IMG/VR virus record: IMGVR_UViG_3300009826_001423
Coordinates: 4,198-68,197 of that record
Direction: 5' to 3' (one strand)
Length of the DNA stretch: 64,000 nt
Origin: a virus
Positions within the stretch are counted from its first letter, which is position 1, and each line of letters starts with the position of its first letter. The position numbers and the translations under genes were made by a program. This document shows, one piece after another, positions 4,006-60,937 of this stretch. Below the pieces are notes generated by a model, which worked only from the letters and a program-made list of their open reading frames with translations, was not told where the DNA came from and did no database searches.

Positions 4006-5334
4006 TTACAGGGAATCACAAGCGAAGCGAGAGCCGCGGGTCGCAAGAACGCGCCAGAGCCCGTTGTACGTCGCGTGCAAAGCACGGCACCCAGCCCGCG
4101 CACCAGCAGCCCACCTGGCACCGGCAAGCAGAGCCGTCATTTGCAAATCGTAACATTGCCACACACCGCCGTTGTCGGGATTTCCACCAACAGTATCACC
4201 CAATGGGGAAACCGGATCCCATGCGTACCAACCAGCAACCGGGGCATTGTTTGTATTTACAGTACGAGTGATTTGTCCATGACCTGTACCAGTAGCCGGG
4301 GCTTCTAACCCTGCACGACCACCATCCCATGTTGCAAAGACAAAGGGATTCACAGCAGGATCAGTAGAGCCACGGAATACACGACCGCCATCCGCATTCT
4401 TCATAATTTGGTCTAACCACTCCCATAGGTTACCCACACAGTCCACACAACCGATTGAAGAAACAGCATGTAGTTTCGCATCTGTTCCTGTGGCATTACC
4501 AGTGGCGTTTGTTGCACCAGTAAGGGAACGGCCTGTGTTTGTAGTCTGCGTCCATGCGTGAAGGTTATCGGCATCATTACCTTGGGGAGAACCGTAAGCA
4601 GAACGAAGCCAAAGGTTGTATGACAGCATCTTCTTACCAACCTTTAACGCAAGATCAGCAAATGATAAATAATTATGACCTTCCGTGCCGCTTAAAGGCA
4701 TTACACCATGAGCAGATACACCTCCGGGACCTACTAAATAAATATCTACCCAGTCACCACCGCCAGCGTATACCATGCCCTCCGGGTCACCGGGGCGTTT
4801 TGGACGATGCTTAAGCGTCCATACACTTCGGGGAACTATACCGTTATAGGTGTTGATTTCCCACCCTGCGCCGTAAACCACCCCAGCAGAGTTTATCGGT
4901 TCAAGGTTGCTGTTTATCCTGCGGCAACGACCGAAGTGAAAGCCTCCTATTTTGCGGGAGTTATTTGCAGTAAAGCCCGATGGGAAGGTGGAGTTTAAGG
5001 ATATTCGATACGTTGGTGAACCGCTTCCACCGGATACCGCCGCATCACATAGGTATACATAGTAGTCGCGCCCAAGTTCAAACACAGAACCTACGTCAAG
5101 TTGTGCAGCCCCTATATTCGTGGAAAGTGTACGGTATACTAAATCACCTACACGGAGAACAACGCCACCTTCAATACTAAGCTGATTACCGTTTGCCGCA
5201 GTGCCAGAAGAAAGTGTTGCCCTCAAATATTCATTAACAGGAGCGGCAATATCCGCACATGCTGCTATTCTTGCCGCAGTTATAAGAGATAAAGGGTCTT
5301 CTGCGGGGCCATCTCTGAATAATAGTTCAGCCAT
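4006..5334 (-). CDS. DGR target: Mtd-like receptor-binding/tail-fibre protein with C-terminal C-type-lectin (FGE-type) fold
   Basis: VR at the extreme 3' end; GFHFG, PEGMVY, WVDIYL, DCVGNLWEW and GSRFACD motifs; last gene of the tail module. Confidence 0.9.
   Translation of the reverse strand: MAELLFRDGPAEDPLSLITAARIAACADIAAPVNEYLRATLSSGTAANGNQLSIEGGVVLRVGDLVYRTLSTNIGAAQLDVGSVFELGRDYYVYLCDAAVSGGSGSPTYRISLNSTFPSGFTANNSRKIGGFHFGRCRRINSNLEPINSAGVVYGAGWEINTYNGIVPRSVWTLKHRPKRPGDPEGMVYAGGGDWVDIYLVGPGGVSAHGVMPLSGTEGHNYLSFADLALKVGKKMLSYNLWLRSAYGSPQGNDADNLHAWTQTTNTGRSLTGATNATGNATGTDAKLHAVSSIGCVDCVGNLWEWLDQIMKNADGGRVFRGSTDPAVNPFVFATWDGGRAGLEAPATGTGHGQITRTVNTNNAPVAGWYAWDPVSPLGDTVGGNPDNGGVWQCYDLQMTALLAGARWAAGARAGCRALHATYNGLWRVLATRGSRFACDSL
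4020..4135 (-). repeat. DGR variable repeat (VR)
   Basis: See TR; 8 of the 9 TR Asn codons are changed (to A, A, H, Y, R, L, T, R). Confidence 0.97.
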
Positions 5335-16855: not shown

Positions 16856-17374
16856 CTAGTCTCTGCCGATATTACGGCGAACTTCGTCCATGTAATCAGT
16901 TCCGTTGATTGTGCATATGAAGTTGAGTTTATCAATCTCTACCTTTGCCCTTCCGGCTACGGAAAGCAGGAGATAAATAATCTCGTATTCTACGCTGGTT
17001 CCCATTTGGGCAGCAACTCCAAGGTTGCCGAGAGTTACATTTTTAGGAATACAGCGCATCACAACTTTTATACCTGTATCCCTATACTCGCCGCTACCTT
17101 CGTCATAAAACTGGACGTTGCCCATGAAAGCAAAGTGGTATGTTTCTGGGGCAGAATAAACAACATTATCCGCAAAAAGAGTACGCCAGTTAATTGTTGT
17201 TGTAAGAGATTGGAAATGCCCCTTTGTTGGTGAATCAATCTCTCCGGCAATGCCAGCCCCGCTCATGCTTTCGGTCATATAGTTGAGATTGGGAAGGGTA
17301 ACATCCACAATCCCCAGCATTTCGTTACCTGCGTCATAGCAGATAAAATTTGTTAATTTATCGGGTATCGCCAT
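16856..17374 (-). CDS. Major tail tube protein (P2 FII-like)
   Basis: VTLPNL, SGAGIAGEID and EIDKLNFICTINGTDY motifs. Confidence 0.93.
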   Translation of the reverse strand: MAIPDKLTNFICYDAGNEMLGIVDVTLPNLNYMTESMSGAGIAGEIDSPTKGHFQSLTTTINWRTLFADNVVYSAPETYHFAFMGNVQFYDEGSGEYRDTGIKVVMRCIPKNVTLGNLGVAAQMGTSVEYEIIYLLLSVAGRAKVEIDKLNFICTINGTDYMDEVRRNIGRD

Positions 17375-17387
17375 GAGTTACTCCTTT

Positions 17388-18866
17388 CTAGCTGAACAGC
17401 GTCAACAGATAATCTGGGTCATATTGCAGTATAAATTCGCCTTGTTCGAATGGAGGGGGAGGAGAAACCCTTACTCTGAATCGCAATATGCCGTCCAGCA
17501 AATCGGTCAGTGGATTATCCTCTTCCTGTAGTGGTTCTATGCGGCCACCGAGAATGAAGCCCCGTGCGGCCAGACCATTAAGCCATATGTTTCCACTGTC
17601 AATAATAGTGTCTCTGAGTCTGCGGCTTATTGGTGCGTCCACTCTGACAAAATGGGTAAGGACGAGAGTATTGCCTATCCAGTCAAACATGCGCCTAATT
17701 GGAATGAAAACGTCCTTAACATCTGTTGTGCCTGGGAATGCTCCAGTGCGGTTGCCCCACGCTACCCAGCCGTTTGTAAAATTGACGGCTGCCGTAATTC
17801 CATTGTTTGCGAGGAAAGTGGCTTTTAGATTGTTAAGGATAATTTCATCGCCATTTTCATAGCAGAGACCGTTTATCCGAAGATTATTGTTGGATGGTGA
17901 CTCATAGGGAACATCCCCATTGTCAAAATCTGTTCTCCCTATAAGCCCTGCCATCTGGGATGAGTAATAGTATTTCTGATTCCCAAGACGTAGCATAGGA
18001 TAGAGATTTATTTGCCGGGTAGATACATAGTTGTTAATGTTCTTCCATGCAGGGATGTTTTGATATCTGTGTGGAATTAAATCTCCGCCCCCATTGCTAA
18101 TCATTGTGGGCATGTCGTTTAGAGTTATACAGCGAAAATGGCCGTTGATATTGTTCCCCTTGGTTTCCATCACGGCGGCCACAACAGGATTTCCAGACCA
18201 TTTAGGTGCTAGTATTTGCCCTGGAACCATCCTAAAGAGCGAATAAATGTCATCAATAATCTCTAGCCCTAAATTTTTATCAGTATTGATGTCAACGCCG
18301 CCAAGAATGTCGTATTCGTCCACCATTTCAGGTGCGAGTCTGGTATAAGATACAGTGATGGTTTGAGTTTCCGTTATGCCGCCTGTTACGCCTGGCTTGG
18401 CATTAATGACAACAAGACCATCACGGTTAAAAGCAAGGGTGTAGTGGGTGTCCTCTTCAAAGCCGTCTACTTCAACGGTATCAATTAACACACCATCAAC
18501 TTGCAGCACCCCAGAGAACCTGCTGAGTGTGACTTCTGCTCCTGTTTCGTCCACCGAATGAATATCCGGGTCAAGTACGTTGATCATAATCAAGGGTGCT
18601 ACACCAAACAAATTAAATTGGGAAAAAATCACTTGTGGTGCAGTGTAGTTATCCCAAATGTCTGGCCTCATGCTAAAGCCGAATGCTCTACGTGCCTGCC
18701 CATTGGTGTGTAGTAGTTGAGGCTTATTAGTTATGTTGTAAGGGTCTTCGCTAAGATGGATAGGTGCTGTTACAAAAGCCACGGGCAAACTTGCATTCAC
18801 TCTCACGGGTGGAACTATAGGGGTATCATCTTCCGAGATAAAAATGCCACGTCTATTTGCTGCCAT
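17388..18866 (-). CDS. Tail sheath protein (FI-like)
   Basis: YESPSNN, NGWVAWGNRT, FIPIRRMFDWI and PPPFE motifs. Confidence 0.93.
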   Translation of the reverse strand: MAANRRGIFISEDDTPIVPPVRVNASLPVAFVTAPIHLSEDPYNITNKPQLLHTNGQARRAFGFSMRPDIWDNYTAPQVIFSQFNLFGVAPLIMINVLDPDIHSVDETGAEVTLSRFSGVLQVDGVLIDTVEVDGFEEDTHYTLAFNRDGLVVINAKPGVTGGITETQTITVSYTRLAPEMVDEYDILGGVDINTDKNLGLEIIDDIYSLFRMVPGQILAPKWSGNPVVAAVMETKGNNINGHFRCITLNDMPTMISNGGGDLIPHRYQNIPAWKNINNYVSTRQINLYPMLRLGNQKYYYSSQMAGLIGRTDFDNGDVPYESPSNNNLRINGLCYENGDEIILNNLKATFLANNGITAAVNFTNGWVAWGNRTGAFPGTTDVKDVFIPIRRMFDWIGNTLVLTHFVRVDAPISRRLRDTIIDSGNIWLNGLAARGFILGGRIEPLQEEDNPLTDLLDGILRFRVRVSPPPPFEQGEFILQYDPDYLLTLFS

Positions 18867-46298: not shown

Positions 46299-47279
46299 TC
46301 ATCCTCCCGTCAGTCCTAGCTCCGCATATAAAGCGGCTTTGTTCTGTTCACCTTTTTGAGTTCTCCAACTTTGCCCTGTGACCTCGAAAAATGTACACAT
46401 TTCCACAAGGCGATTATAGATTCGGTTAGATGGGTCGGTTAGCCTTGTTTTTGAATCAACGATGGAGAGGTTATCACGAATTTCATCTATCTTTTTACCC
46501 TTGCCATCTTCGCCAATTCGTAAATTTGTGGTGATTATGGTGGGCTTGTTTGCACGGTATCTAGTGTCGATGATGGCATAGAGTTTTTCGTAAGCCCAAT
46601 TTGTTTTATACTCAACACCAAGGTCATCAAGTATTAGCAGACTGGCTTCCCCGATGGTATTAAATACATCAGTTTCTCCCATATCTCCATGCTGGTCATA
46701 ACTGTCCTTAATAACCGCAAGAATGCGAGATACGGATATAGCCATGACTGCTTTCCCCTGCTTGTAAAGTTCATTGGCGATAGCAAAGCTGAAGTATGTT
46801 TTGCCGTTGCCAGCTTCGCCGTGGAGAAGGAGACCACGATTATTAGCAAAAACCGTTTCCCAACTGGCACAGTATCGTTTGCCAAAATCAAGTAAGTTTT
46901 GGTTGTCTGGCCTATGCTTCCAATTTTCAAAAGTGGAAGTAGCAAATCGCTCGTCCATTAGCGAATAGGCTCTGAACTTATCCAACCTGCGACGCAGGTT
47001 TTTTTCTTTTTCAGCTTCTTCTTCCCGACGCAATTCATCACTTCGACATCTGCATATAACTGGTACTCGCCGCTTTGCATCAAGTATCATGATATCTTTT
47101 CTGAGTGGATCACCACAGGTTTTGCAATGGGGCAGAGGTTGGCTGAAATCTCCCGAAGCATCGCTTGCGATTACTTGGAAAATTGATACTTCATGCTCGG
47201 TATCAGAGTTTCCCCGATGTAATATTTCTGTATGGGTCATCCTCTCCTCCGATTTGATAATTTGCGCCATTGTTTGCAT
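46299..47279 (-). CDS. DnaC/IstB-like helicase loader ATPase
   Basis: Zn-binding Cys residues; GEAGNGKT; LILDDLG; IITTN. Confidence 0.92.
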   Translation of the reverse strand: MQTMAQIIKSEERMTHTEILHRGNSDTEHEVSIFQVIASDASGDFSQPLPHCKTCGDPLRKDIMILDAKRRVPVICRCRSDELRREEEAEKEKNLRRRLDKFRAYSLMDERFATSTFENWKHRPDNQNLLDFGKRYCASWETVFANNRGLLLHGEAGNGKTYFSFAIANELYKQGKAVMAISVSRILAVIKDSYDQHGDMGETDVFNTIGEASLLILDDLGVEYKTNWAYEKLYAIIDTRYRANKPTIITTNLRIGEDGKGKKIDEIRDNLSIVDSKTRLTDPSNRIYNRLVEMCTFFEVTGQSWRTQKGEQNKAALYAELGLTGG

Positions 47280-48135
47280 TTGGTTTTTCTCCTCCGCCTA
47301 ATCTCGTTTTTGAGGCATTTCTATTGGCTTCGTGTATTTCGTGTTCCGCTAAAGTCTTGATGTTATTGCAAATGCAATTATTGACTATGCTTCTGGCATA
47401 CGGCCAATTGCGCTTGTTCATGTCGATGCTGACATCAATGGCTTTGCAGATGAGTTCGCCTTCAACTCCCTCGTTCAAAAATTCCGCAATTTCCATATAG
47501 GCAGTCGGGCTAAGTAAATTCCCCATGTGTTGTTGATAATATTTTTGTATGTGCTGGATTACGTTGCCATGCTGGTCAATTGCGGCCTTGACGTTAATGA
47601 GGCTGTTTTGTGGTTGTTCTTGCGGTCGTTTATCGTCCTCAATTATCGTGTGGTCTGCGTTGTGGTCGGGCTTGTGGTCGTTTAACGGCTGATTAGTATT
47701 ACTAACAACATCAACGATAATATCTTCAGTAGTTATACTGTCGTTGTTGTTAATAATGGGTCGGGGTTGCGGTTGGTATTGCGGTCGGGCTTGTGGTTGC
47801 TCTTGTGGTCGGGCTTGCAGTCGTTTAACGTCTGCAAGTTCAAATGAAATAATTTTATAGATAGGGGCTTGGTTGCCCTTTCTTTTTATCCACTCAATTC
47901 GTCCAGCTTGAACAAGCATGTTCCTGGCATCTTTCAATGCCGTGCTTTGAAGTCCAGATTTGCCCATAAGGACTGACTGTGCGACGGTAATCTGGTCTGG
48001 GTATCCTGCCCTTCGCCATGTGTCCATTAAGGCAAGCCATAATGCGATAGCCGATGTACCCAAGTTAGGATTAGTTTCACGCCAGTCGAAAAATCGTGCG
48101 ACTTCTATTTCAAGATTGGGTTTCCAATAGTCCAA
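47203..48135 (-). CDS. Replication initiator with C-terminal DnaD domain
   Basis: SAIALWLAL...wHTH; NWPYARSIVNN; overlaps the loader gene. Confidence 0.85.
   Translation of the reverse strand: MDYWKPNLEIEVARFFDWRETNPNLGTSAIALWLALMDTWRRAGYPDQITVAQSVLMGKSGLQSTALKDARNMLVQAGRIEWIKRKGNQAPIYKIISFELADVKRLQARPQEQPQARPQYQPQPRPIINNNDSITTEDIIVDVVSNTNQPLNDHKPDHNADHTIIEDDKRPQEQPQNSLINVKAAIDQHGNVIQHIQKYYQQHMGNLLSPTAYMEIAEFLNEGVEGELICKAIDVSIDMNKRNWPYARSIVNNCICNNIKTLAEHEIHEANRNASKTRLGGGEKPNANNGANYQIGGEDDPYRNITSGKL
47608..47826. repeat. About ten 12-bp iterons (TTGYGGTYG core) inside the initiator gene; candidate origin
   Basis: Clusters at 47608..47631, 47648..47683 and 47767..47826; the last two flank an AT-rich segment. 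Confidence 0.6.
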
Positions 48136-48977: not shown

Positions 48978-50744
48978 TTAGAAAAGCAATCCAGCTTCAG
49001 AAACAAACTGGCTTCTTTGTGCCGCTTGAACTTTGCCATTCCAGCCAGTCATTGCATTTGGGCTGCTGATGTTCAAATACTCCCTCGCCCTTGTAATGGC
49101 TACATAGAAAAGTCGGCGTTCTTCTTCTAGGTCACCCCGGTTTGGGAATGTGCCTTGCGTTGCGCCAATTATGAATACCTCGTCAAATTCCAGTCCTTTG
49201 CTACCGTGTACTGTCATCAAATAGACCTTGCTTGCATCACGCTCTTTGTCCTGGCGTTCAGCCACATTTCCAAGCCGTACCCATTCAAGCAGAGCGGCAG
49301 GGGTTTCTGGTTCACCGAGGTCAATTTGACGTTGGTGCCATTTGGTTATTGCATACCTTGCCCCACGGTCATCTATTTTGAGGGTAGTTGCAATACGGTT
49401 TGCACCTTCCGATATGTTGGCATTGGCATGGAAGCGCTCACGCACAAAGTTAAACTGAGATATAAACTGCTCGGCTTCCTTGGTGACTTTCAAGGCATCC
49501 AAAAGTGGTATATTGTCTTGTACCTGAGTCCAATCAGCATCTAGGAGAGCCTTTTTACTTGCCCTTATATTTGCTATCCTACGCACTGCGGTATCATCCA
49601 ATGGGTTTTCTATAGCGGCAATCCACGCAATTAATTCTTTCGCACCCTTGCTTGAAAATGGATTGTCACTTGAAGAAGCCAGCGTTTCAAACTGGATGTT
49701 ATTAGCCGTTAGTAGCCCTTTGGCTCGTTCAAGTTGCTTATTAGTTCTGGCAAGTATGGCAGTTGTTTTGTATGAGCCAAGTTTTTGATTTGCTTCTAAT
49801 CGTGGCAAAATAGCTGTTATTTCAGCAACATCATCACCCGGTCTGCGGCACTCTATCTTTGCCCCTTCTTTCAAAGTGAGAAGTTGTTTTTCCGTTTGAT
49901 GGTTATGTTTTATGAGGGCATTAGCAGCGCACACTATAGGGGTGGATGAACGATAATTCCGCTCCAGCTTTACTGTGTGCCATTGGGTATTTTCGGCAAG
50001 TCCTAAAATTATGGTGATGTCGCTACCCCGGAAGCCGTAAATGCTTTGAAAATCATCACCGACTACAAATACATTGTCGGGGTTTATGCCCTGCACGATT
50101 GCCCATTGCTCGGCATCCGTGTCTTGGAATTCATCTACAAAGATGTGTTTGTATTTCTGTTGGAGATTCAAACGGATATCTTCACGGTTATAAACTGCCT
50201 TTTTTACCGTATTTATTAAGCCATCAAAATCAAATGCGTTGTTGCGCCGTAAGCGAAACTCATATTCTTTCAAGGCTCGTTCCGCTTGCTGGCGGTCTGA
50301 GGCGGTCATGTTGTCTACTCGACCGGCTCTGAAATCGGCTACTCGCTTGGCAGGTATTTTATATTTAAGGCTCGTTAATACTTCTGCCAGAAGTTCATCG
50401 CATTCTGGCTGGTCGTATACGCTGAAATTTGGCTCATACCCGAGTTCATGGGCAAAGGCTCGAATCGTATCGACACAAAAGGAATGGAAGGTGTTACAGA
50501 ACAACTCTTTGCCGTCAGCACCAATTAGGCCGATTACACGTTCTTTCATTTCTGCACCGGCCGCTCTAGTGAAGGTTAACGCAAGCATATTTGTTGGGCT
50601 GACACCCGCCTCATAGAGACGGGCAACACGCCGGGTTAATACTTGGGTTTTGCCTGTACCAGCACCAGCAAGGCATAATATTTGGGGCTGGTCACTGAAT
50701 ACGGCTTCGTGCTGTTCGGAGTTTAAGGATGAGTAGTCAGTCAT
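48978..50744 (-). CDS. UvrD/PcrA-family helicase
   Basis: AGAGTGKT, VDEFQD, GDDFQSIYGFRG, NYRS, TVHGSKGLEF and YVAITRAR motifs. Confidence 0.95.
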   Translation of the reverse strand: MTDYSSLNSEQHEAVFSDQPQILCLAGAGTGKTQVLTRRVARLYEAGVSPTNMLALTFTRAAGAEMKERVIGLIGADGKELFCNTFHSFCVDTIRAFAHELGYEPNFSVYDQPECDELLAEVLTSLKYKIPAKRVADFRAGRVDNMTASDRQQAERALKEYEFRLRRNNAFDFDGLINTVKKAVYNREDIRLNLQQKYKHIFVDEFQDTDAEQWAIVQGINPDNVFVVGDDFQSIYGFRGSDITIILGLAENTQWHTVKLERNYRSSTPIVCAANALIKHNHQTEKQLLTLKEGAKIECRRPGDDVAEITAILPRLEANQKLGSYKTTAILARTNKQLERAKGLLTANNIQFETLASSSDNPFSSKGAKELIAWIAAIENPLDDTAVRRIANIRASKKALLDADWTQVQDNIPLLDALKVTKEAEQFISQFNFVRERFHANANISEGANRIATTLKIDDRGARYAITKWHQRQIDLGEPETPAALLEWVRLGNVAERQDKERDASKVYLMTVHGSKGLEFDEVFIIGATQGTFPNRGDLEEERRLFYVAITRAREYLNISSPNAMTGWNGKVQAAQRSQFVSEAGLLF

Positions 50745-51189
50745 TTTGCACCTCCAGTAGCTTGGAATCGTCATGAATATTGCCGATGACTTCAAAGGAA
50801 TACTTTATGCCGTGTACGTTACTCTTGCCGTAAAAATTCATGGGGCAATCAAATTCCTTGTTCCATAAACAAAATTTCAAATGAGACTCGGCATATCGAA
50901 CAACACCAACTTCTGAAAACTCCGTACTTTTGTTTGTGCGCCGAACAATATCACCCTCAAATATCAAATTCCCATTAGTATCATTTAATCCGATACATTG
51001 TCCGATTGTAGCGGGGTCAATGTCATCATAAGTTATGCGTGAAGGGTTAGCCGTATAGTCCGCTATAGACCAGCCACTCCGACTAGGCACTTTAGGAGTT
51101 TCTATCAAATGCCCGATTACCCACCCATCACCATAAGGCACTTTACTCATTCCATGCCTTTTCCCACGAAATAAATATCTGTCGTTCAT
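50737..51189 (-). CDS. YopX family protein
   Basis: YLFRGKR...TIGQCIGLND...FEGDI...IGNIHD. Confidence 0.88.
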   Translation of the reverse strand: MNDRYLFRGKRHGMSKVPYGDGWVIGHLIETPKVPSRSGWSIADYTANPSRITYDDIDPATIGQCIGLNDTNGNLIFEGDIVRRTNKSTEFSEVGVVRYAESHLKFCLWNKEFDCPMNFYGKSNVHGIKYSFEVIGNIHDDSKLLEVQND

Positions 51190-51554
51190 TCCGCCTCCTC
51201 CAGCAGTTCTGGGTTATCGTGGATGTTTCCAATAACCTCGACATAAGAAGTGTTTTCGAGCGGCCATACGGTTTTTTCAGACTTGCACCACATGTTTTTG
51301 TGCCATATGACCTCATAAATACCCCTTCTGCTTGCGGCGTTTTGGATAATATCTCCTTCGAAAATAAGCCTGTCGTTTTTGTCCTTCATACCAGTGCTTT
51401 GTCCGATGGTGACAGGGTCTACTTCATACCGTGAATCTCCACATAAAATGTAGCCATTTACATGAGGTTGGGCAGAGTCAAGACCGCAGTAATAACCTTG
51501 CACCCATCCCTCATCACTCCATCGAATTCCTCGGAATAAATACCGCTCGGTCAT
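51186..51554 (-). CDS. YopX family protein
   Basis: MTERYLFRG...TIGQSTGMKDKN...FEGDI...GNIHDNPELL. Confidence 0.88.
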   Translation of the reverse strand: MTERYLFRGIRWSDEGWVQGYYCGLDSAQPHVNGYILCGDSRYEVDPVTIGQSTGMKDKNDRLIFEGDIIQNAASRRGIYEVIWHKNMWCKSEKTVWPLENTSYVEVIGNIHDNPELLEEAE

Positions 51555-53686
51555 GCTGCACCCCCATCCAAATTCCAAACATGCCAGTCGCTTCCAATAC
51601 AAAGAGCGTCCACGGAATCAATACCCATCACTCCGCTAAGGATGATGTTATCGAAGGATGCCCCTGCAACTTCTAAACCCTTAAGCACTCGGTGTAAATT
51701 ATCACTGTCCAAGGCTTCCATATTGTCTATAGCCAGCACTTTAAGCGGAGGGTTTAGCCGTTCCACGATGGTTGTCATAAAGGCAATAAGCAGAATCATC
51801 TGCTCACCTGTGGAAAGCGCATCAAAGTTACGGCGTTCTTCACGGTCATAATCCACATAACCGAACTGGAACACTTCCTTGCCTTTCTCGTCCTCGGTTT
51901 GAATATAGAAGATTCGTTCAACGCCCATTGCTCTTAACTTGCTATTTACAGATTCCTTCAGCGGTGCAATAGTGTCTTTGACAAATTCGCCTTGAAGTCC
52001 TTTGGGGCCGACAGCTTCGGTGATGCGCTTCCAAGCCTCGGTATGATAGCCAGCAATTGTGCCGTCAACCATGCTTGATTTAAGGTTGGCTAGGGCATTA
52101 CGAACCTTGGTTTGTTCGTCAATGGTGATTTTTAAGGCTTTTATCTCGGTTTCAAGTTCCCCTATGCGTTTTTCCAATGCTTGTGTTGGCAACAGTGACC
52201 ACTCCTCACCATCGGAAGGAAGCAGAGTTTGTAATTCTTCTTTTTGCGAAGCCAGCCACGCTGCCATTACACTGTCATCGTTTTCGGGCTTTTTTAAATC
52301 AGCTTCATACCCACGGATTGTCTGCATAACGTCCTCGTTTGAGCGGAGGGCTTTTATTTCCTCTTGCCGGAGCATATCAATCTTGGCTTGAGTTTCCTGT
52401 AAGGCACGTTTTTCATTTTCTAGGTTTGCGTTATTTGCAATGTCTTTTTCGCTTATGCCTCTCAAGTCGGCAGCGTAGCGTTGTACTTCGTGACCAAGTT
52501 CCATAATAAATTCTCTGAAATCGTAACCACACTGTATGCGTTCATTCAATGGACATGTTCCACTGTGATTTTTTAGACTGTTGACAAGTTTTTCACTTGC
52601 ATCCTTTTGTGATTTTATGGGTTGATGTTGTTCGAGTAGAGTAATCCTCAAATTTTCAAAGGAAGCAATATTTTTGTTGATGCCTTCTAAACGCTTTGTT
52701 TCTTGGGATATTAGCGCACTATTATCCACCTGTACCAGTTCGCCTTTGTACTGGGCGATTAGTTCATTGATGGCAGCAGCATTCTTAGTCGTATCGCTTG
52801 TTTCGGCTTCAGCTATGGCTTTCTTCCGAGAAGTGATTCGTTGGTTATTTAGTTCACGTTGTTTATTTTCGCTTTTCACCCGTGTAAGTTCGTTGGAAGC
52901 CGTGAGCCGTTCTTCATTCAGCACTTCTTGTTTTGCACGGTTTGCGTCCAAATTACGGTCGGTCTGCTCTAAATCGTTTTTATATTCTGCGATTTTTTGA
53001 GAAGCCCCCTCGGACTTATCACGTTCTTTCTTCCAATGGGTTAGCTGGTTCTTAGCGAAATCCAACATGAATGCTAAAAATTCTTGATAAGATACGGCTT
53101 CACTTGCTTTCCAATTTTTCTGTGCCACTTTAACGCATTCATCAATATCAGCATAAAGCGTTTCTACCTCTTGAGGGTCTGCGTCATCAGTTAATGCCGC
53201 CATAGCACGAATGGCATCACGAATGATGTCTGGGCTATAAGTTCCACCATCGTTGACGATTGAGAATATAAATTCCCTCCGCTTCATGTCAGATAGCCCA
53301 AGAAACTCACTAAAGTCCAACATTACAGGGATTTTGCCGAGTTCTTTCTCAATTCGCTGTTCTTTCTGTGCAGCGGTTTTTTCATCGCCTTTGGGGGCAA
53401 TGGTGACCGTCTGTGTAACAGTGCTGTCCTTGCGTGTGAATTTGCGGCTTACGCTGGTCGTGTTGTCTGTTTCTATTCCGACCTCCATCGTGTTGCCGCT
53501 TGCAAGTTTCATTGTTTCAGCAGATTGCTTGCCATTGCCGGGTATATAACCCAGCATTGCAAGAGCCAGTGATTGGGTACGTGTAGTTTTTCCTGCACCA
53601 TTCGAGCCGATGATGATATCGCGCCCGGTTAGGGTTTGTGTGGCATCTGCACCTTTAATACCCTTCATTGTGATTTGTGTAATCAC
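51551..53686 (-). CDS. SMC/SbcC(Rad50)-like coiled-coil ATPase
   Basis: GSNGAGKT, long coiled coil with a CPLN zinc-hook-like motif, LSTGEQ signature, AIDNMEALD; GTG start with RBS AAAGGAG. Confidence 0.88.
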   Translation of the reverse strand: MITQITMKGIKGADATQTLTGRDIIIGSNGAGKTTRTQSLALAMLGYIPGNGKQSAETMKLASGNTMEVGIETDNTTSVSRKFTRKDSTVTQTVTIAPKGDEKTAAQKEQRIEKELGKIPVMLDFSEFLGLSDMKRREFIFSIVNDGGTYSPDIIRDAIRAMAALTDDADPQEVETLYADIDECVKVAQKNWKASEAVSYQEFLAFMLDFAKNQLTHWKKERDKSEGASQKIAEYKNDLEQTDRNLDANRAKQEVLNEERLTASNELTRVKSENKQRELNNQRITSRKKAIAEAETSDTTKNAAAINELIAQYKGELVQVDNSALISQETKRLEGINKNIASFENLRITLLEQHQPIKSQKDASEKLVNSLKNHSGTCPLNERIQCGYDFREFIMELGHEVQRYAADLRGISEKDIANNANLENEKRALQETQAKIDMLRQEEIKALRSNEDVMQTIRGYEADLKKPENDDSVMAAWLASQKEELQTLLPSDGEEWSLLPTQALEKRIGELETEIKALKITIDEQTKVRNALANLKSSMVDGTIAGYHTEAWKRITEAVGPKGLQGEFVKDTIAPLKESVNSKLRAMGVERIFYIQTEDEKGKEVFQFGYVDYDREERRNFDALSTGEQMILLIAFMTTIVERLNPPLKVLAIDNMEALDSDNLHRVLKGLEVAGASFDNIILSGVMGIDSVDALCIGSDWHVWNLDGGAA

Positions 53687-56329: not shown

Positions 56330-57223
56330 TTACTCCTGTACACCACATATTTGCTTTGCTACTCGCATTGCCTCTGGAGTGCGCAACCTTTGCCAAACTC
56401 CTATGCTTCGCGCCCACTTGAATCCACGGCTTTTTAACTTAGAGCGAATTTCTTCGCTCGGCTTTTCGTCAAAATTTATTTGAACTCTGCCGTCTGCTTC
56501 GTTGTCGATAATTACGCCGCCATCAAATGCAATGTCATCGGCAGCACCACGAACTTGAAGGTCTTGTAATTTTAGAAGCCGGATTTTTAGCCGTTTTATT
56601 TCAGCATTGTTATTGGTAAGTTTATAAGCTGGGTAAGGTGCTTGGTGGAATGAGTATCCACTTTTTATTCCACTATCCCAATGCTCCGCTGCGCTATCAC
56701 TCAGACCGCTAAAACCCTTCATGGTTTTATTTTTGCGATAATAAGCATTGGCCTTTTTCATAGCGATATGCTCCGATGATAGTTTTTCAATTTTTTCTTT
56801 GAGTTTTTCTATGGCATTGGGGTCATCTGACATTATGCCGCCGGTTCCTATGCTGTGGATTTTGTCCAAAAGTCCTTGAATTTTTGTCCACTCTTCCATG
56901 TTCTTGTCTCTGGCGGCGTTCTGCTTTTCCTTTTTTCGAGTAGGGAAATTTGAACCTCCGGCAATCATTATGGAAGGAACACGGGCATCTATTTCGTAAC
57001 CTTTGTTCAAGTTAGCGGCCATCTTCCGGCAATAAGTATCCAGCAGGGAATCTATTTTTTCATGGTACATAGAATCGACACTGCTTTTTTGTGCCTCTGC
57101 AATCTCTGTTGCTTTGGCTACTATCCGTTGATATTCAGCCGTTGCACTTCCTTCCTTATAATCATTAAAGCTATTTGCTTCTTTGGCTCTCCGTGCGGCG
57201 GCTTCGCTTATCTCATACGGCAT
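56330..57223 (-). CDS. Conserved mobile-element hypothetical protein
   Basis: PSIMIAGGSNFP; NNAEIKRL...; FDEKP...LKSRGFKW. Confidence 0.65.
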   Translation of the reverse strand: MPYEISEAAARRAKEANSFNDYKEGSATAEYQRIVAKATEIAEAQKSSVDSMYHEKIDSLLDTYCRKMAANLNKGYEIDARVPSIMIAGGSNFPTRKKEKQNAARDKNMEEWTKIQGLLDKIHSIGTGGIMSDDPNAIEKLKEKIEKLSSEHIAMKKANAYYRKNKTMKGFSGLSDSAAEHWDSGIKSGYSFHQAPYPAYKLTNNNAEIKRLKIRLLKLQDLQVRGAADDIAFDGGVIIDNEADGRVQINFDEKPSEEIRSKLKSRGFKWARSIGVWQRLRTPEAMRVAKQICGVQE

Positions 57224-58292: not shown

Positions 58293-58521
58293 CAGCGTTT
58301 TCGCCTTGGCTTAAAATTAGGGCAAGGCTTGTTTTGACCTCTTCAATTACAGATGTGGCGGCTACTGAGGTCTCAAATTTTCCGTAAGGTACGCCGTTTA
58401 CATATATTCCGTACTCGCTTACGCCTCCTTCTGAAAACGAGGGCGTAGGTATCACCTGCATAATACTGTTTACCCCTAAAACCCCTGTTGATAGCCCATC
58501 TTGGCTAGTTAAAATAAACAT
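58237..58521 (-). CDS. Hypothetical protein
   Basis: RBS AAGGAGG. Confidence 0.55.
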   Translation of the reverse strand: MFILTSQDGLSTGVLGVNSIMQVIPTPSFSEGGVSEYGIYVNGVPYGKFETSVAATSVIEEVKTSLALILSQGENADVEPQYQIPADKDGGTNG

Positions 58522-58535
58522 GTGATTTCCTCCTT

Positions 58536-58760
58536 TTATGCTTGGCTTGTAGCCATTGCTTTTTTATTAAGTACATTCTTTGCCGTTCCACCAGTTAGCC
58601 CTTCAACATAGGCAACAACGTGAGGAAATATAGTTCTTGCAATTCCGTCAATCTTTTCTTGCGGAACTGCATTTAAGCTAAATGGTGGTTCACACCCGCA
58701 AAAGCCCCTGTTGTCTGCGGGTTCATTACATATAGGGCAGATTTCATAATGCCATGCCAT
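58536..58760 (-). CDS. Small Cys-containing hypothetical protein
   Basis: MAWHYEICPICNE...FCGCE; RBS AGGAGG. Confidence 0.6.
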   Translation of the reverse strand: MAWHYEICPICNEPADNRGFCGCEPPFSLNAVPQEKIDGIARTIFPHVVAYVEGLTGGTAKNVLNKKAMATSQA

Positions 58761-58762
58761 GG

Positions 58763-58963
58763 TTATGCCTCCTTTTTCCTTAAAGAATCCATTGTTACCC
58801 CCAGCTTATCTGCCAAGCGACCGAGAACTTCCATGCTCGGTTGTTTTCGTCCAGCTTCATAGTGGTTTATCATTGACTGCGAAACGCCTACGGCATCACC
58901 AAGCTGGGTACCGGTTAAGCCAGCAGTTTCACGGAGAGACTTAAGTTTTAAACCGTTTAGCAT
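58763..58963 (-). CDS. Cro-like Xre HTH protein (copy 1)
   Basis: LKSLRETAGLTGTQLGDAVGVSQSMINHYEAGRKQPS. Confidence 0.9.
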   Translation of the reverse strand: MLNGLKLKSLRETAGLTGTQLGDAVGVSQSMINHYEAGRKQPSMEVLGRLADKLGVTMDSLRKKEA

Positions 58964-59044
58964 CAGACCACCTTCCTAAAGAAATTCTGTTTTTTTGCAA
59001 TAAAAAATTACATATGGGGTAGATTTTATAATGCCATGCAATGG

Positions 59045-59815
59045 TTATGCCTCATTTTGCTCATCAGATGAACTTGCGACATTTTCAACGGAACTATAAT
59101 CCTTCCCATCTATGAGAAAAATGCGAGCAAGCTTGTCAATTTCTAGGTACTTTCGACCTTCAATACTAATTTGCATATAGATGGTCTCGTACTCAACACT
59201 AGGCTTACCCTGTTCACCAACGCAGATTTTGCCAAGCACCACATTTTTGGGTATGCAGCGCATAACTATCTTCACGACTTCGGCTTGGAACTCGCCGCTT
59301 TCTTCATCGTAAAGCTGAACAGCACCGCGAAATTCAAAATGGTAAATTTGTGGGGCTGAAAAGAGTAAACACCTACCACCAACTAGCGAGTTCCAGTTTA
59401 TAGTAGTTATTAGCGGTTGTAGCATCCAATCCGCAATTGACACATCCATAAAGCCCCTTGAGGTGAGATATGCACTTGTTGCATAACTTAAATCAGGCAA
59501 CTCTATACGTTCGACACCTTTTACTTCATTGCCATCGTGGTAACAAATAAACCCAATAAATGCATCCGCATTAGAGCGTACCTCTATTGGCAATTTATCA
59601 AGCCAACGGTGGATAAATTTAAGAGTGCCGTTTTTCGTCTTGCATCTTCTGGGATTAGATTCTAGCCAACGCTTTATACTGTAGAGTTCGTCTATTACGC
59701 TAACATGTGGATGCAGTGCAATCAGTTTTCTTACATCTTCCTTGGTAATCAGAAGTTCACCGTCTCGTATTAACGGAAGGCGAATAACTTTATTCTGATT
59801 AGACACAGCAAGCAC
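59045..59815 (-). CDS. Fusion of a replication-initiator-like helical domain and a tail tube paralogue
   Basis: 50 of 88 ungapped identities (hand count) between the C-terminal block and the tube gene at 16856..17374. Confidence 0.75.
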   Translation of the reverse strand: MLAVSNQNKVIRLPLIRDGELLITKEDVRKLIALHPHVSVIDELYSIKRWLESNPRRCKTKNGTLKFIHRWLDKLPIEVRSNADAFIGFICYHDGNEVKGVERIELPDLSYATSAYLTSRGFMDVSIADWMLQPLITTINWNSLVGGRCLLFSAPQIYHFEFRGAVQLYDEESGEFQAEVVKIVMRCIPKNVVLGKICVGEQGKPSVEYETIYMQISIEGRKYLEIDKLARIFLIDGKDYSSVENVASSSDEQNEA

Positions 59816-59821
59816 TCCTTT

Positions 59822-60025
59822 CTATGCCTCCTTTTTTCTAACTAAATCATCCAGTGTTGTGTCGAAAAATTCCGCAATCCGCACAAGCACCTCAACACTT
59901 GGAGTTTTGAATTCCCTCTCCATGTTTGCAATCATTGATTGGTGCAAGCCTACGGCATCGCCAAGCTGAGTTGTAGTCATGCCAGCGGCTTCACGCAGGG
60001 CTTTCAGCCTTTTGCCGTTTACCAT
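59822..60025 (-). CDS. Cro-like Xre HTH protein (copy 2)
   Basis: About 40 of 66 residues identical to copy 1. Confidence 0.9.
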   Translation of the reverse strand: MVNGKRLKALREAAGMTTTQLGDAVGLHQSMIANMEREFKTPSVEVLVRIAEFFDTTLDDLVRKKEA

Positions 60026-60079
60026 CAGACGGACTCCTCTCGAATTCTGTATTTTTTCATCAAATTATTACCTTGGTAA

Positions 60080-60108
60080 TTGACACATTGCCCGCAAGAG
60101 GGGTATAA
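60080..60108 (+). promoter_or_regulatory. Perfect rightward sigma-A promoter
   Basis: TTGACA-17-TATAAT. Confidence 0.8.
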
Positions 60109-60189
60109 TTTCATTGTCCTGATGAAACTAAGCCCTTTGCAAAAGCAAGGGGGCGGCTTTTTGTTGCCGTTTTGTATTACCGTGGAAAT

Positions 60190-60235
60190 AGTATAGTCCG
60201 AATATCCGCACCTATCAATAGGCAGGTGCGATATT
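60190..60235 (-). promoter_or_regulatory. Leftward (lytic) promoter with overlapping inverted repeat (operator candidate)
   Basis: TTGATA-17-TATACT at 60190..60218; AATATCCGCACCT...AGGTGCGATATT inverted repeat. Confidence 0.7.
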
Positions 60236-60286
60236 TAGGACTTAAATCTGTTTTTGCAGTATAAGTGCGTCTAGGAAGGTGATTAT

Positions 60287-60937
60287 GTGTTTTTTGAACG
60301 ACTTGAAAAATTGTCTGCTGAACGAAGTACAACAGTCACAGCAGTTGTGCGTGACTTAGGTTATAGCAAGGGAAGTATGTCTCATTGGAAAAAAGGGAGT
60401 TGCCCCAGCGGTGATATTGTTGTGCGTTTTGCAGATTATTTTAGTGTTACAACTGACTACTTGTTGACAGGAAAAGAGTCTCTAGCTCGTCTCAATCAGA
60501 ACAAGGGAGATGAGAGCGTTGCAATGGACAAGGTTTTAGCCAGAGTGGCACTTCAAGCTGTCTTCCTATGTCCTGACGTTTATGAACCACATCACCTTGG
60601 GCCAGTTGACGCTAATTTGATTAGTGGGATTGCACCTTATATGGGCATGTGGGAAAAAGCTGTGCCTGTTATTTCAAAAAAATCTAAGGGGATTATTCCA
60701 GTTAATCGCATAGAAGGATTTCTTGAAATTGCTCATGCAAACACCAGCCTCCCCGATGACATGTACCCATCTCATCGTGAGTTTTTGGTTCTGCGTCAAA
60801 TGGCTATAAGGATGGATAGCAGGCAAAACAAAATAATGGATGATTTTCTTTTTCACTTGGATATTCAAAAAAGCGACGGCGATAAAATCGCCGCCGCCTT
60901 AAGGGAAATAGGTAAGGATGTAACTAACTTAGGCTGA
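60287..60937 (+). CDS. CI-like repressor (Xre HTH N-terminus)
   Basis: VVRDLGYSKGSMSHWKKG.CP...FADYFSVTTDYLL; divergent from cro. Confidence 0.85.
   Translation: MFFERLEKLSAERSTTVTAVVRDLGYSKGSMSHWKKGSCPSGDIVVRFADYFSVTTDYLLTGKESLARLNQNKGDESVAMDKVLARVALQAVFLCPDVYEPHHLGPVDANLISGIAPYMGMWEKAVPVISKKSKGIIPVNRIEGFLEIAHANTSLPDDMYPSHREFLVLRQMAIRMDSRQNKIMDDFLFHLDIQKSDGDKIAAALREIGKDVTNLG

Follow-up and report, generated by a model that had tools for sequence, protein, structure and literature searches.

In the assembled pyocin and T4 tail tubes, a protruding β-hairpin passes under the neighbour in the same ring and ties that neighbour to a pair of subunits in the following ring (PMC6088184). The hairpin of Mu gp40 likewise protrudes to the adjacent ring and mediates the inter-ring contact, and one ring is a 24-stranded barrel made from six β-sandwiches with a negatively charged lumen (PMC11915804). 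Here, we describe a tube-derived gene in which this hairpin is rewritten. It lies in a window of 64,000 nucleotides of virus DNA (positions 4,198 to 68,197 of IMG/VR record IMGVR_UViG_3300009826_001423, a 69.9-kb provirus record rated complete), where a chimeric open reading frame (ORF) at 59045..59815 on the minus strand joins an N-terminal module of phage replisome organisers to a tail tube domain. On our best reading of the sequence, the chimera appears to be a selected accessory early gene, neither a structural tail gene nor a decaying copy.

The chimera shares its C-terminal half with the P2 FII, Mu gp40 and R2-pyocin FIIR2 tubes (PF04985; 3J9Q, 5W5E, 6PYT). Its residues 84–240 are homologous with them, with 47–49% identity to the clade of the phage's own (resident) tube, and the acidic character is common to both. 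It differs by an additional N-terminal domain of 83 residues, measuring 253–256 aa against the 160–196 aa of the tubes. Moreover, it misses three features of a working subunit: its hairpin motif is lost, its termini are not free and its length differs, and its gene is outside the tail module.

The N-terminal half belongs to the replisome organisers, in which the module is partnered by Phage_rep_org_N (PF09681) or Lin1244_N (PF14297) and which fall in PHROG 1032, 1163, 186 and others. The chimera carries their C-terminal module but at its own N-terminus, with the tube domain behind it. In the organisers a DNA-binding N-domain stands ahead of the module; the chimera is without it and is therefore not an organiser. 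The Hcp protein of type VI secretion systems (T6SSs) has the tube fold and makes non-stacked hexameric rings in the cytoplasm that bind partners and sometimes bear an extra domain, and the extensions of the 'evolved' Hcps are C-terminal toxins of a secretion machine. The chimera can be likened to Hcp by the shared fold, and its extension is N-terminal whereas that of Hcp is C-terminal.

Proteins that stop tail assembly are known from mobile elements. Tab, a tail assembly blocker of a Pseudomonas prophage, is made constitutively by the prophage, with the tape measure as the target of its activity (PMC10884400). Tai is the tail assembly inhibition by phage-inducible chromosomal islands (PICIs) and prophages, and the proteins tested act on the central tail fibre or on the tail needle (PMC11364771). 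Homology to the targets is not reported in either paper, and some systems of this type are accompanied by counter-defence genes for self-protection in the element's lytic cycle (PMC10884400, PMC11364771). The chimera resembles them in concept only, as a mobile-element protein that would stop the tail assembly of other phages. In contrast to them it is a tube homologue, is predicted to lie in a repressed lytic operon, has no evident counter-defence partner and is known from sequence alone; PADLOC 2023 gave no hit of any kind on it.

An earlier note on this DNA had claimed that the C-terminal part of the chimera aligns with the phage's own tail tube in an intact frame, and both hold. The minus strand of 59045–59815 is a single frame, uninterrupted across 256 codons from the first GTG to the TAA stop at 59045–59047. 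In BLASTP the chimera matches the resident tube with 75 of 159 identities (47%, E 5e-47) over tube residues 5–161, and the words VMRCIPKNV, SVEYE and EIDKL are present. By BLASTP and Pfam, the tube domain (Phage_tube/FII, PF04985) takes up residues 84–240 (59096..59566, minus strand). PF04985 itself matches residues 88–240 over profile positions 6–156 of 165 with E 6.7e-19 and 68.7 bits (cut-off 22.4), about half of the resident tube's 126.6 bits, and PHROG 55 matches with E 3.8e-20. Under the NCBIfam model TIGR01611 (tail_tube) the chimera scores 34.7 bits, and six genuine tubes of the clade with 49.6–75.3 bits are also under the cut-off of 102.75 bits.

The genome has exactly two tube-like genes, the resident tube and the chimera. 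The resident tube gene (172 aa, 16856..17374, minus strand; PF04985 E 1e-36) adjoins the sheath gene (17388-18866, minus strand; PHROG 23), and its product is distantly related in sequence to the R2-pyocin tube (3J9Q, 5W5E, 6PYT). The chimera gene is outside the tail module, in the early region after a cro gene and about 42 kb away. Its residues 84–256 have a pI of 4.6, and the net charge of the tube domain, -11, is at the negative extreme of 120 tubes.

The chimera departs from the tubes at the element that ties the rings. A scan of the collection selected G[AP]GI[AG]GE[IVL][DE] as the most conserved word of the tube family. In the chimera the inter-ring β-hairpin at residues ~114–135 (59411..59476, minus strand) is rewritten, and the family motif G-A-G-I-A-G-E-I-D...P..G is replaced by TSRGFMDVSIADWMLQP. 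The alignment thus bears out the earlier observation that the segment matching the tube's SGAGIAGEID loop is replaced. Across the 120 tubes 22 columns are conserved at ≥90%, with G39, G41 and G44 invariant (resident numbering). Among the hairpin columns G39, G41, I42, G44, E45 and G52, only G44 is kept in the fusion; G39 is changed to T, G41 and I42 are deleted, E45 is changed to F, and G52 is lost to W or D depending on the alignment.

The 11 conserved core columns at tube positions 21–28 and 116–160 are kept (G21, L27, P28, G116, E131, Y134, E146–K149, G158 and D160), with N151 as the exception. The conserved columns lost outside the hairpin also include R64. Both termini are altered, as P4, K6 and L7 are gone from the free N-terminal arm (IPDKL.NF), and R166 and G170 from the C-terminal tail.

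We compared 128 aligned core positions with a periphery of 38–44 positions, made of the hairpin (tube residues 35–58), the first 8 and the last 12 residues. These hairpin limits agree with the published loop K33-G58 of CD1364. In the core, the ratio of unique changes in the fusion to those in a genuine tube is 1.52, within the 0.62–1.68 obtained likewise among genuine tubes, and 39 of 247 relative-rate tests are significant. In the hairpin and termini the ratio is 8.4 against 0.39–2.08 for genuine tubes, and all 247 tests are significant. The identity to the resident tube follows the same division. The fusion core is 53% identical, between a tube of the sister subclade (58%) and an outgroup tube (42%), but its hairpin and termini are identical at only 7 of 38 positions (18%) versus 30/44 and 21/44 in two real tubes (48–68%).

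Because the excess of change is local, with the core at the tube rate and the hairpin and termini at 8.4, we conclude from these alignments that the tube core appears to be under tube-like purifying selection and its assembly elements to be specifically remodelled. The pattern is clearly not what the sequence of a decaying duplicate or of neutral decay would look like. The earlier note had reserved the case of a fusion unique to this genome and drifting neutrally; so far the fusion is indeed unique to this genome, but its evolution clearly does not look like neutral decay. When neutral decay by substitutions only was simulated down to 47–65% identity, the frame stayed open in 2–9% of runs, with indels not counted.

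Two simpler sources of the altered sequence were ruled out. A double frameshift cannot have made the hairpin, as the alternative frames contain stops and lack similarity. Recent gene conversion between the two tube-like genes was excluded too, as only blocks of 73 nt and 26 nt align, at 74–85%.

In a maximum likelihood tree of 34 tubes, the fusion tube domain nests within the clade formed by relatives of the resident tube (support 100/99). All tubes that it nests among have the canonical hairpin, so the hairpin must have been rewritten on the fusion's own branch while the frame stayed open. Its end branch is long, 1.4 versus a median of 0.24. The domain was first taken as a paralogue of the resident tube, and the homology stands, but the tree shows no duplication of the resident gene; the domain is placed in a sister subclade and not beside the resident tube (95/86). 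A place together with the resident clade also passes the approximately unbiased (AU) test (p 0.17), so the donor may belong to that clade as well.

Since the inter-ring hairpin and the terminal arms are rewritten and an extra basic domain sits at the N-terminus in place of the short arm conserved in real tubes, we read the chimera as unable to stack. That it would be a non-stacking derivative of the tail tube is well supported by the sequence comparisons. The earlier proposal of a chain-terminating subunit gains in part from this, as the loss of the inter-ring element fits a subunit that would be unable to stack or would end the chain.

The N-terminal module spans residues ~8–76 (59588..59794, minus strand) and is an unnamed conserved domain that normally occupies the C-terminal part of replisome organisers of phages and of DnaD-like initiators. 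Its likeness to the C-terminal domain of replication initiators had been put forward in the earlier note, and the searches confirm it. An exhaustive phmmer search with residues 1–86 against 1.84 billion representatives (E≤1e-3) matched 1105 representative clusters. In most of the 150 listed matches, the aligned part is at about residues 150–250 of proteins of 240–300 aa. Ten of these were examined; Phage_rep_org_N is in four and Lin1244_N in one, and for nine the PHROG match is to a family called replisome organizer, DnaD-like helicase loader or replication initiation protein.

The module has the consensus IxLPLNDGxExxVT...LYPAVDVxQELRxMxGWLxANPxRRKTKxGIxRFINxWLxKEQD. The chimera aligns over the full module and keeps all of its five invariant residues (W50, P55, K59, G63 and W71), departing from it by H in place of Y35 and by loss of the KEQD tail motif. 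A profile built without the chimera gives it 85.8 bits, low in the range of the members (83–136). Residues 1–83 make a basic domain of ~9 kDa with a pI of 10.1.

AlphaFold2 with the family alignment gives a β-hairpin and three helices for the module at a pLDDT of 85, whereas the whole chimera without an alignment yielded an unusable model (pLDDT 39). The module model superposes on replisome-organiser, Lin1244_N and DnaD-domain proteins of the ESM Atlas with a TM of 0.76–0.82 and an rmsd of 2.0–2.7 Å. It also superposes on clusters of the AlphaFold database (AFDB), of which the best is named 'Primosomal protein I'.

No model for the module exists in Pfam or NCBIfam. A profile search of PDB sequences found nothing with it, nor did a fold search of AFDB Swiss-Prot with the module model, and Foldseek gave no PDB match at E≤0.001. 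VIA-align reached a best Z of 4.0, which is at the noise level, with DnaT (4OU6, Z 3.6) and a DnaD-domain protein (2I5U, Z 3.1) within the noise; feature searches of the ESM Atlas were uninformative. A very large domain family of phage replication organisers, with 1105 representative clusters, is thus exposed that has neither a Pfam or NCBIfam model nor a solved structure.

The origin- or DNA-binding N-domain (Phage_rep_org_N, Lin1244_N or a DnaD-like winged helix) is absent from the chimera, in which the module begins at about residue 8. The phage's own DnaD-like initiator (47203-48135) was considered as a paralogue of the N-module and rejected, as there is no similarity, and no other ORF in the window carries the module. 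Elsewhere, the module is found with at least Phage_rep_org_N, Lin1244_N, DUF6291, HTH_36 and HNH as partners. Small stand-alone module proteins also occur. NVP1122A_49 of Vibrio phage 1.122.A and P0142 look complete, and many other seemingly stand-alone ones are at contig ends and may be truncated.

The architecture is new, although both component families are known. The fusion had been thought to be undescribed, and no search returned one of this kind. None of 124 relatives of the resident tube is a fusion, all being 160–196 aa, and none of 80 tube genes of IMG/VR is, the longest possible N-terminal extension there being 15 codons. Among the best 150 relatives of the N-module, none has space for a tube domain behind the module. 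A protein index of 5.8 billion sequences holds the architecture only in the chimera itself, and tblastn against INPHARED (50,697 phage records) matched the halves separately only. IMG/VR and the species genomes of GTDB gave no second fusion.

The chimera's 90% cluster is one sequence on three contigs, and the DNA of this locus is found solely in termite-gut metagenomes. The locus is also spanned, with identical sequence, by Logan contigs from two termite-gut runs, which are perhaps the data behind this sequence and do not count as independent support. The loci around relatives of a primase-like neighbour gene were searched too and contain no fusion. That neighbour is a 297-aa protein (56330-57223, minus strand) matching PHROG 19458 ('primase', E 8e-103) and weakly the Pfam family DUF3560, and phages from gut and termite metagenomes commonly carry relatives of it at 40–56% identity.

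The locus was compared with a sister phage, an ENA contig of 70.5 kb that is also a JGI contig and whose tube is 90% identical to the resident tube. The sister's switch region is colinear, with integrase, an Arc-like gene, a CI-like gene, a single cro and a Cys-rich gene (MGWHYKICPICNE...). In the sister, the Cys-rich gene starts two bases past the cro stop and the chimera is absent. The chimera is hence accessory, as the sister phage has cro directly before the next gene.

In the window, cro1 is followed by the chimera, then by a decayed copy of a cro end with the first 11 codons of the Cys-rich gene, another cro leader, cro2 and lastly the Cys-rich gene in intact form. The net difference from the sister is an insert of ~1.06 kb made of the chimera and cro2. 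The earlier placement of the chimera, ~42 kb from the tail module and directly after cro, is right, but it named one cro where cro-like genes flank both sides. The first, cro1 (HTH_3, 67 aa, 59822..60025, minus strand), is the ortholog of the sister's single cro (84% aa). The second, cro2 (cro-like HTH, 66 aa, 58763..58963, minus strand), is 60% identical at the aa level both to cro1 and to the cro of the sister. The Cys-rich gene (74 aa, MAWHYEICPICNE..., 58536..58760, minus strand) is the one directly after cro in the sister, which served as the 'empty site' reference.

A recombination scar at 59007..59058 on the minus strand comprises the chimera end N-E-A-stop and the decayed first 11 codons of the Cys-rich gene, with ATG turned to ATT and TGC to TAC. 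Against 58725-58776 it shows 5 differences in 52 nt (90% identity), and it is joined to the second cro 5′ leader at a GTAAT microhomology; AAAA-G-AGGCATA is a further microhomology at the joints. A cro 3′ end contributes, in frame, the last three codons of the chimera (N-E-A-stop). The arrangement would take two or more microhomology-mediated events.

The scar is still 90% identical to its source, and the chimera has diverged deeply, in both halves, from all sampled relatives. From this we infer that the chimera, or at least its tube part, would predate the local rearrangement and have been imported already diverged. The chimera and the second cro copy would then have arrived as the ~1.06-kb insert between cro and the next gene by microhomology-mediated rearrangements.

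The start of the chimera is probably the second GTG, at 59806, giving a product of 253 aa. The AAAGGAG ribosome-binding site (59815-59821) overlaps the first GTG at 59815, the listed start, and is spaced 8 nt ahead of the second, which is preferred for this reason. The cro1 stop is 15 nt upstream of the 59806 start. A promoter-like site, TTGATA-17-TATACT (60190..60218, minus strand), lies upstream of cro1, and no other promoter-like or terminator-like site was found in the scan of the minus strand over 58400–60400, cro2 included. By this consensus pattern matching of promoter and terminator sites, the chimera is most simply read as the second gene of an early lytic operon, probably transcribed behind cro1. 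Its production in the lysogen is unlikely, because it is predicted to lie inside the repressed lytic operon behind cro1 without a promoter-like site of its own. The comparison with prophage tail-assembly blockers, made in the earlier note, therefore holds as a concept but not for expression in the lysogen.

As to what the chimera does, our proposal is interference with tube assembly. The tube core would retain the side-by-side ring contacts or would be recognised as tube, with stacking made impossible. A non-polymerising mimic would be made early together with cro1 and would enter or cap the rings of related P2-type tails, poisoning their elongation. The targets may be co-induced or superinfecting relatives, or the phage's own tails if the mimic serves as a timing device. 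The N-domain could be a steric block or could tether the mimic to the replication machinery. That such a mimic enters or caps rings of related FII-type tails is offered tentatively on the sequence pattern, with somewhat less than even confidence. The fuller history, that a temperate phage turned a tube gene, possibly taken from a competitor, into a weapon or regulator in the form of an early poison or capping subunit fused to a replisome-organiser module, is rather doubtful.

Several points weigh against this proposal. The split of core and periphery was chosen after the lost conserved columns had been seen. The three contigs are from termite-gut assemblies of possibly common source, amounting to one sequence only, and at 47% aa identity synonymous sites have reached saturation. 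The look-up of sequencing runs returned no RNA runs and only two DNA runs from termite gut, which may be the source data. Early expression behind cro1 is predicted to expose the phage's own tails as well; the known assembly blockers escape such self-exposure via a counter-defence gene (PMC10884400, PMC11364771), and no such partner gene is evident at the locus. A complex prediction of the resident tube with the fusion tube domain scored 0.21 (mark 0.32) and gives evidence neither way. Any role of the N-module in the mechanism is a guess.

The same remodelled core would also suit a ring scaffold, in which non-stacking hexameric rings of the tube core, like those of Hcp, display six basic organiser modules for early replication or replisome recruitment, with the tube fold as an oligomerisation platform replacing the usual origin-binding N-domain. 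A conserved core minus the stacking hairpin is what a single-ring protein requires, and the N-domain is basic (pI 10.1). The module is elsewhere almost exclusively in replication organisers and initiators with many partner domains, the phage's own DnaD-like protein lacks it as do all the other ORFs of the window, and the gene lies upstream of the replication genes in the early operon (DnaD-like 47203-48135, DnaC-like loader 46299-47279 and helicase 48978-50795). However, the sister phage lives without the gene, which is therefore not a core replication factor, the tube domain is still acidic (pI 4.6, -11) with no adaptation to DNA holding, and the domain order is opposite to that of the organisers with the KEQD tail motif lost. 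We regard the scaffold as unlikely. An immune decoy, by analogy, would be an early non-assembling tube look-alike that occupies a host tube sensor before the real tube appears, without triggering it. Counter-defence cassettes typically have an early accessory position beside a small HTH gene, and the chimera's core surface is conserved with the assembly elements altered. Tube proteins do trigger the DSR2 NADase, which the phage inhibitor DSAD1 counters (PMC10981675, PMC11087589). But the DSR2 examples concern a siphovirus tube and no sensor of FII-type tubes is known, PADLOC models match neither the chimera nor its non-HTH neighbours, the record covers the provirus alone, and the N-terminal module is not obviously needed. 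The anti-DSR2 protein is not known to be a tube homologue, and the decoy seems improbable.

No function at all is the remaining account, the chimera being a by-product of the illegitimate recombination that also duplicated cro, made from a stray gene of the replication module and a tube gene taken up from an unsampled lineage, and not yet broken. The scarred locus speaks for it, with its duplicated cro, decayed fragment of the next gene, GTAAT and AAAA-G-AGGCATA microhomologies and three final codons from a cro 3′ end, and so do the gene's absence from the sister phage and its being a singleton in all databases searched. Neutral decay, however, should hit core and periphery alike, whereas the core changes at the genuine-tube rate and the periphery 8.4-fold. 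The hairpin was rewritten on its own branch with the frame open, at positions that include G39 and G41, invariant in 120 tubes, and simulated decay rarely keeps such a frame (2–9% of runs, before indels). Both halves are deeply diverged while the adjacent scar is 90% identical to its source, making the gene older than the rearrangement. We hold a by-product to be as improbable as the decoy.

If the interference is true, the chimera would be the first assembly inhibitor that is a remodelled copy of its own structural target. A dominant-negative copy of the target would be a route unlike that of Tab and Tai, and would suggest scanning phage early regions for remodelled structural paralogues. The locus also separates the constraints on the tube fold, with the core conserved and the hairpin motif free to change once stacking is unneeded.

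Some observations concern the switch around the chimera. The CI-like repressors of the window (60287-60937, plus strand) and of the sister phage (L049:5958-6560, minus strand) are only 25% identical, but the DNA of the promoter region is 78% identical and cro1 is 84%. The repressor thus seems to have been swapped without its cro, and the new one might have cro2 as its partner. A perfect TTGACA-18-TATAAT promoter on the plus strand (60080-60109) faces the promoter-like site of cro1 (60190-60218, minus strand), and terminator-like hairpins on the plus strand (60133-60168) lie between the two, in a face-to-face switch of the P2/186 type.

The Cys-rich protein (MAWHYEICPICNE...GFCGCEPP) has a CxxC...CxC spacing and follows cro here and in three related contigs with 65–81% identity. 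Pfam, PHROGs and PADLOC assign it to no family, the only match being a sub-threshold one to WKF (E 0.019). Farther away, the overlapping neighbours 50737-51189 and 51186-51602 (both minus strand) each match PHROGs 98 and 8684, which are YopX-like in the sister, and make an apparent tandem paralogue pair.

One annotation of the tube family deserves a remark. The families phrog_55, phrog_13676 and phrog_15831 are labelled 'head closure / connector', yet they match the sheath-adjacent tube gene, which has a Phage_tube E of 1e-36. The label looks wrong for the tube family and is repeated in several GenBank phage records.

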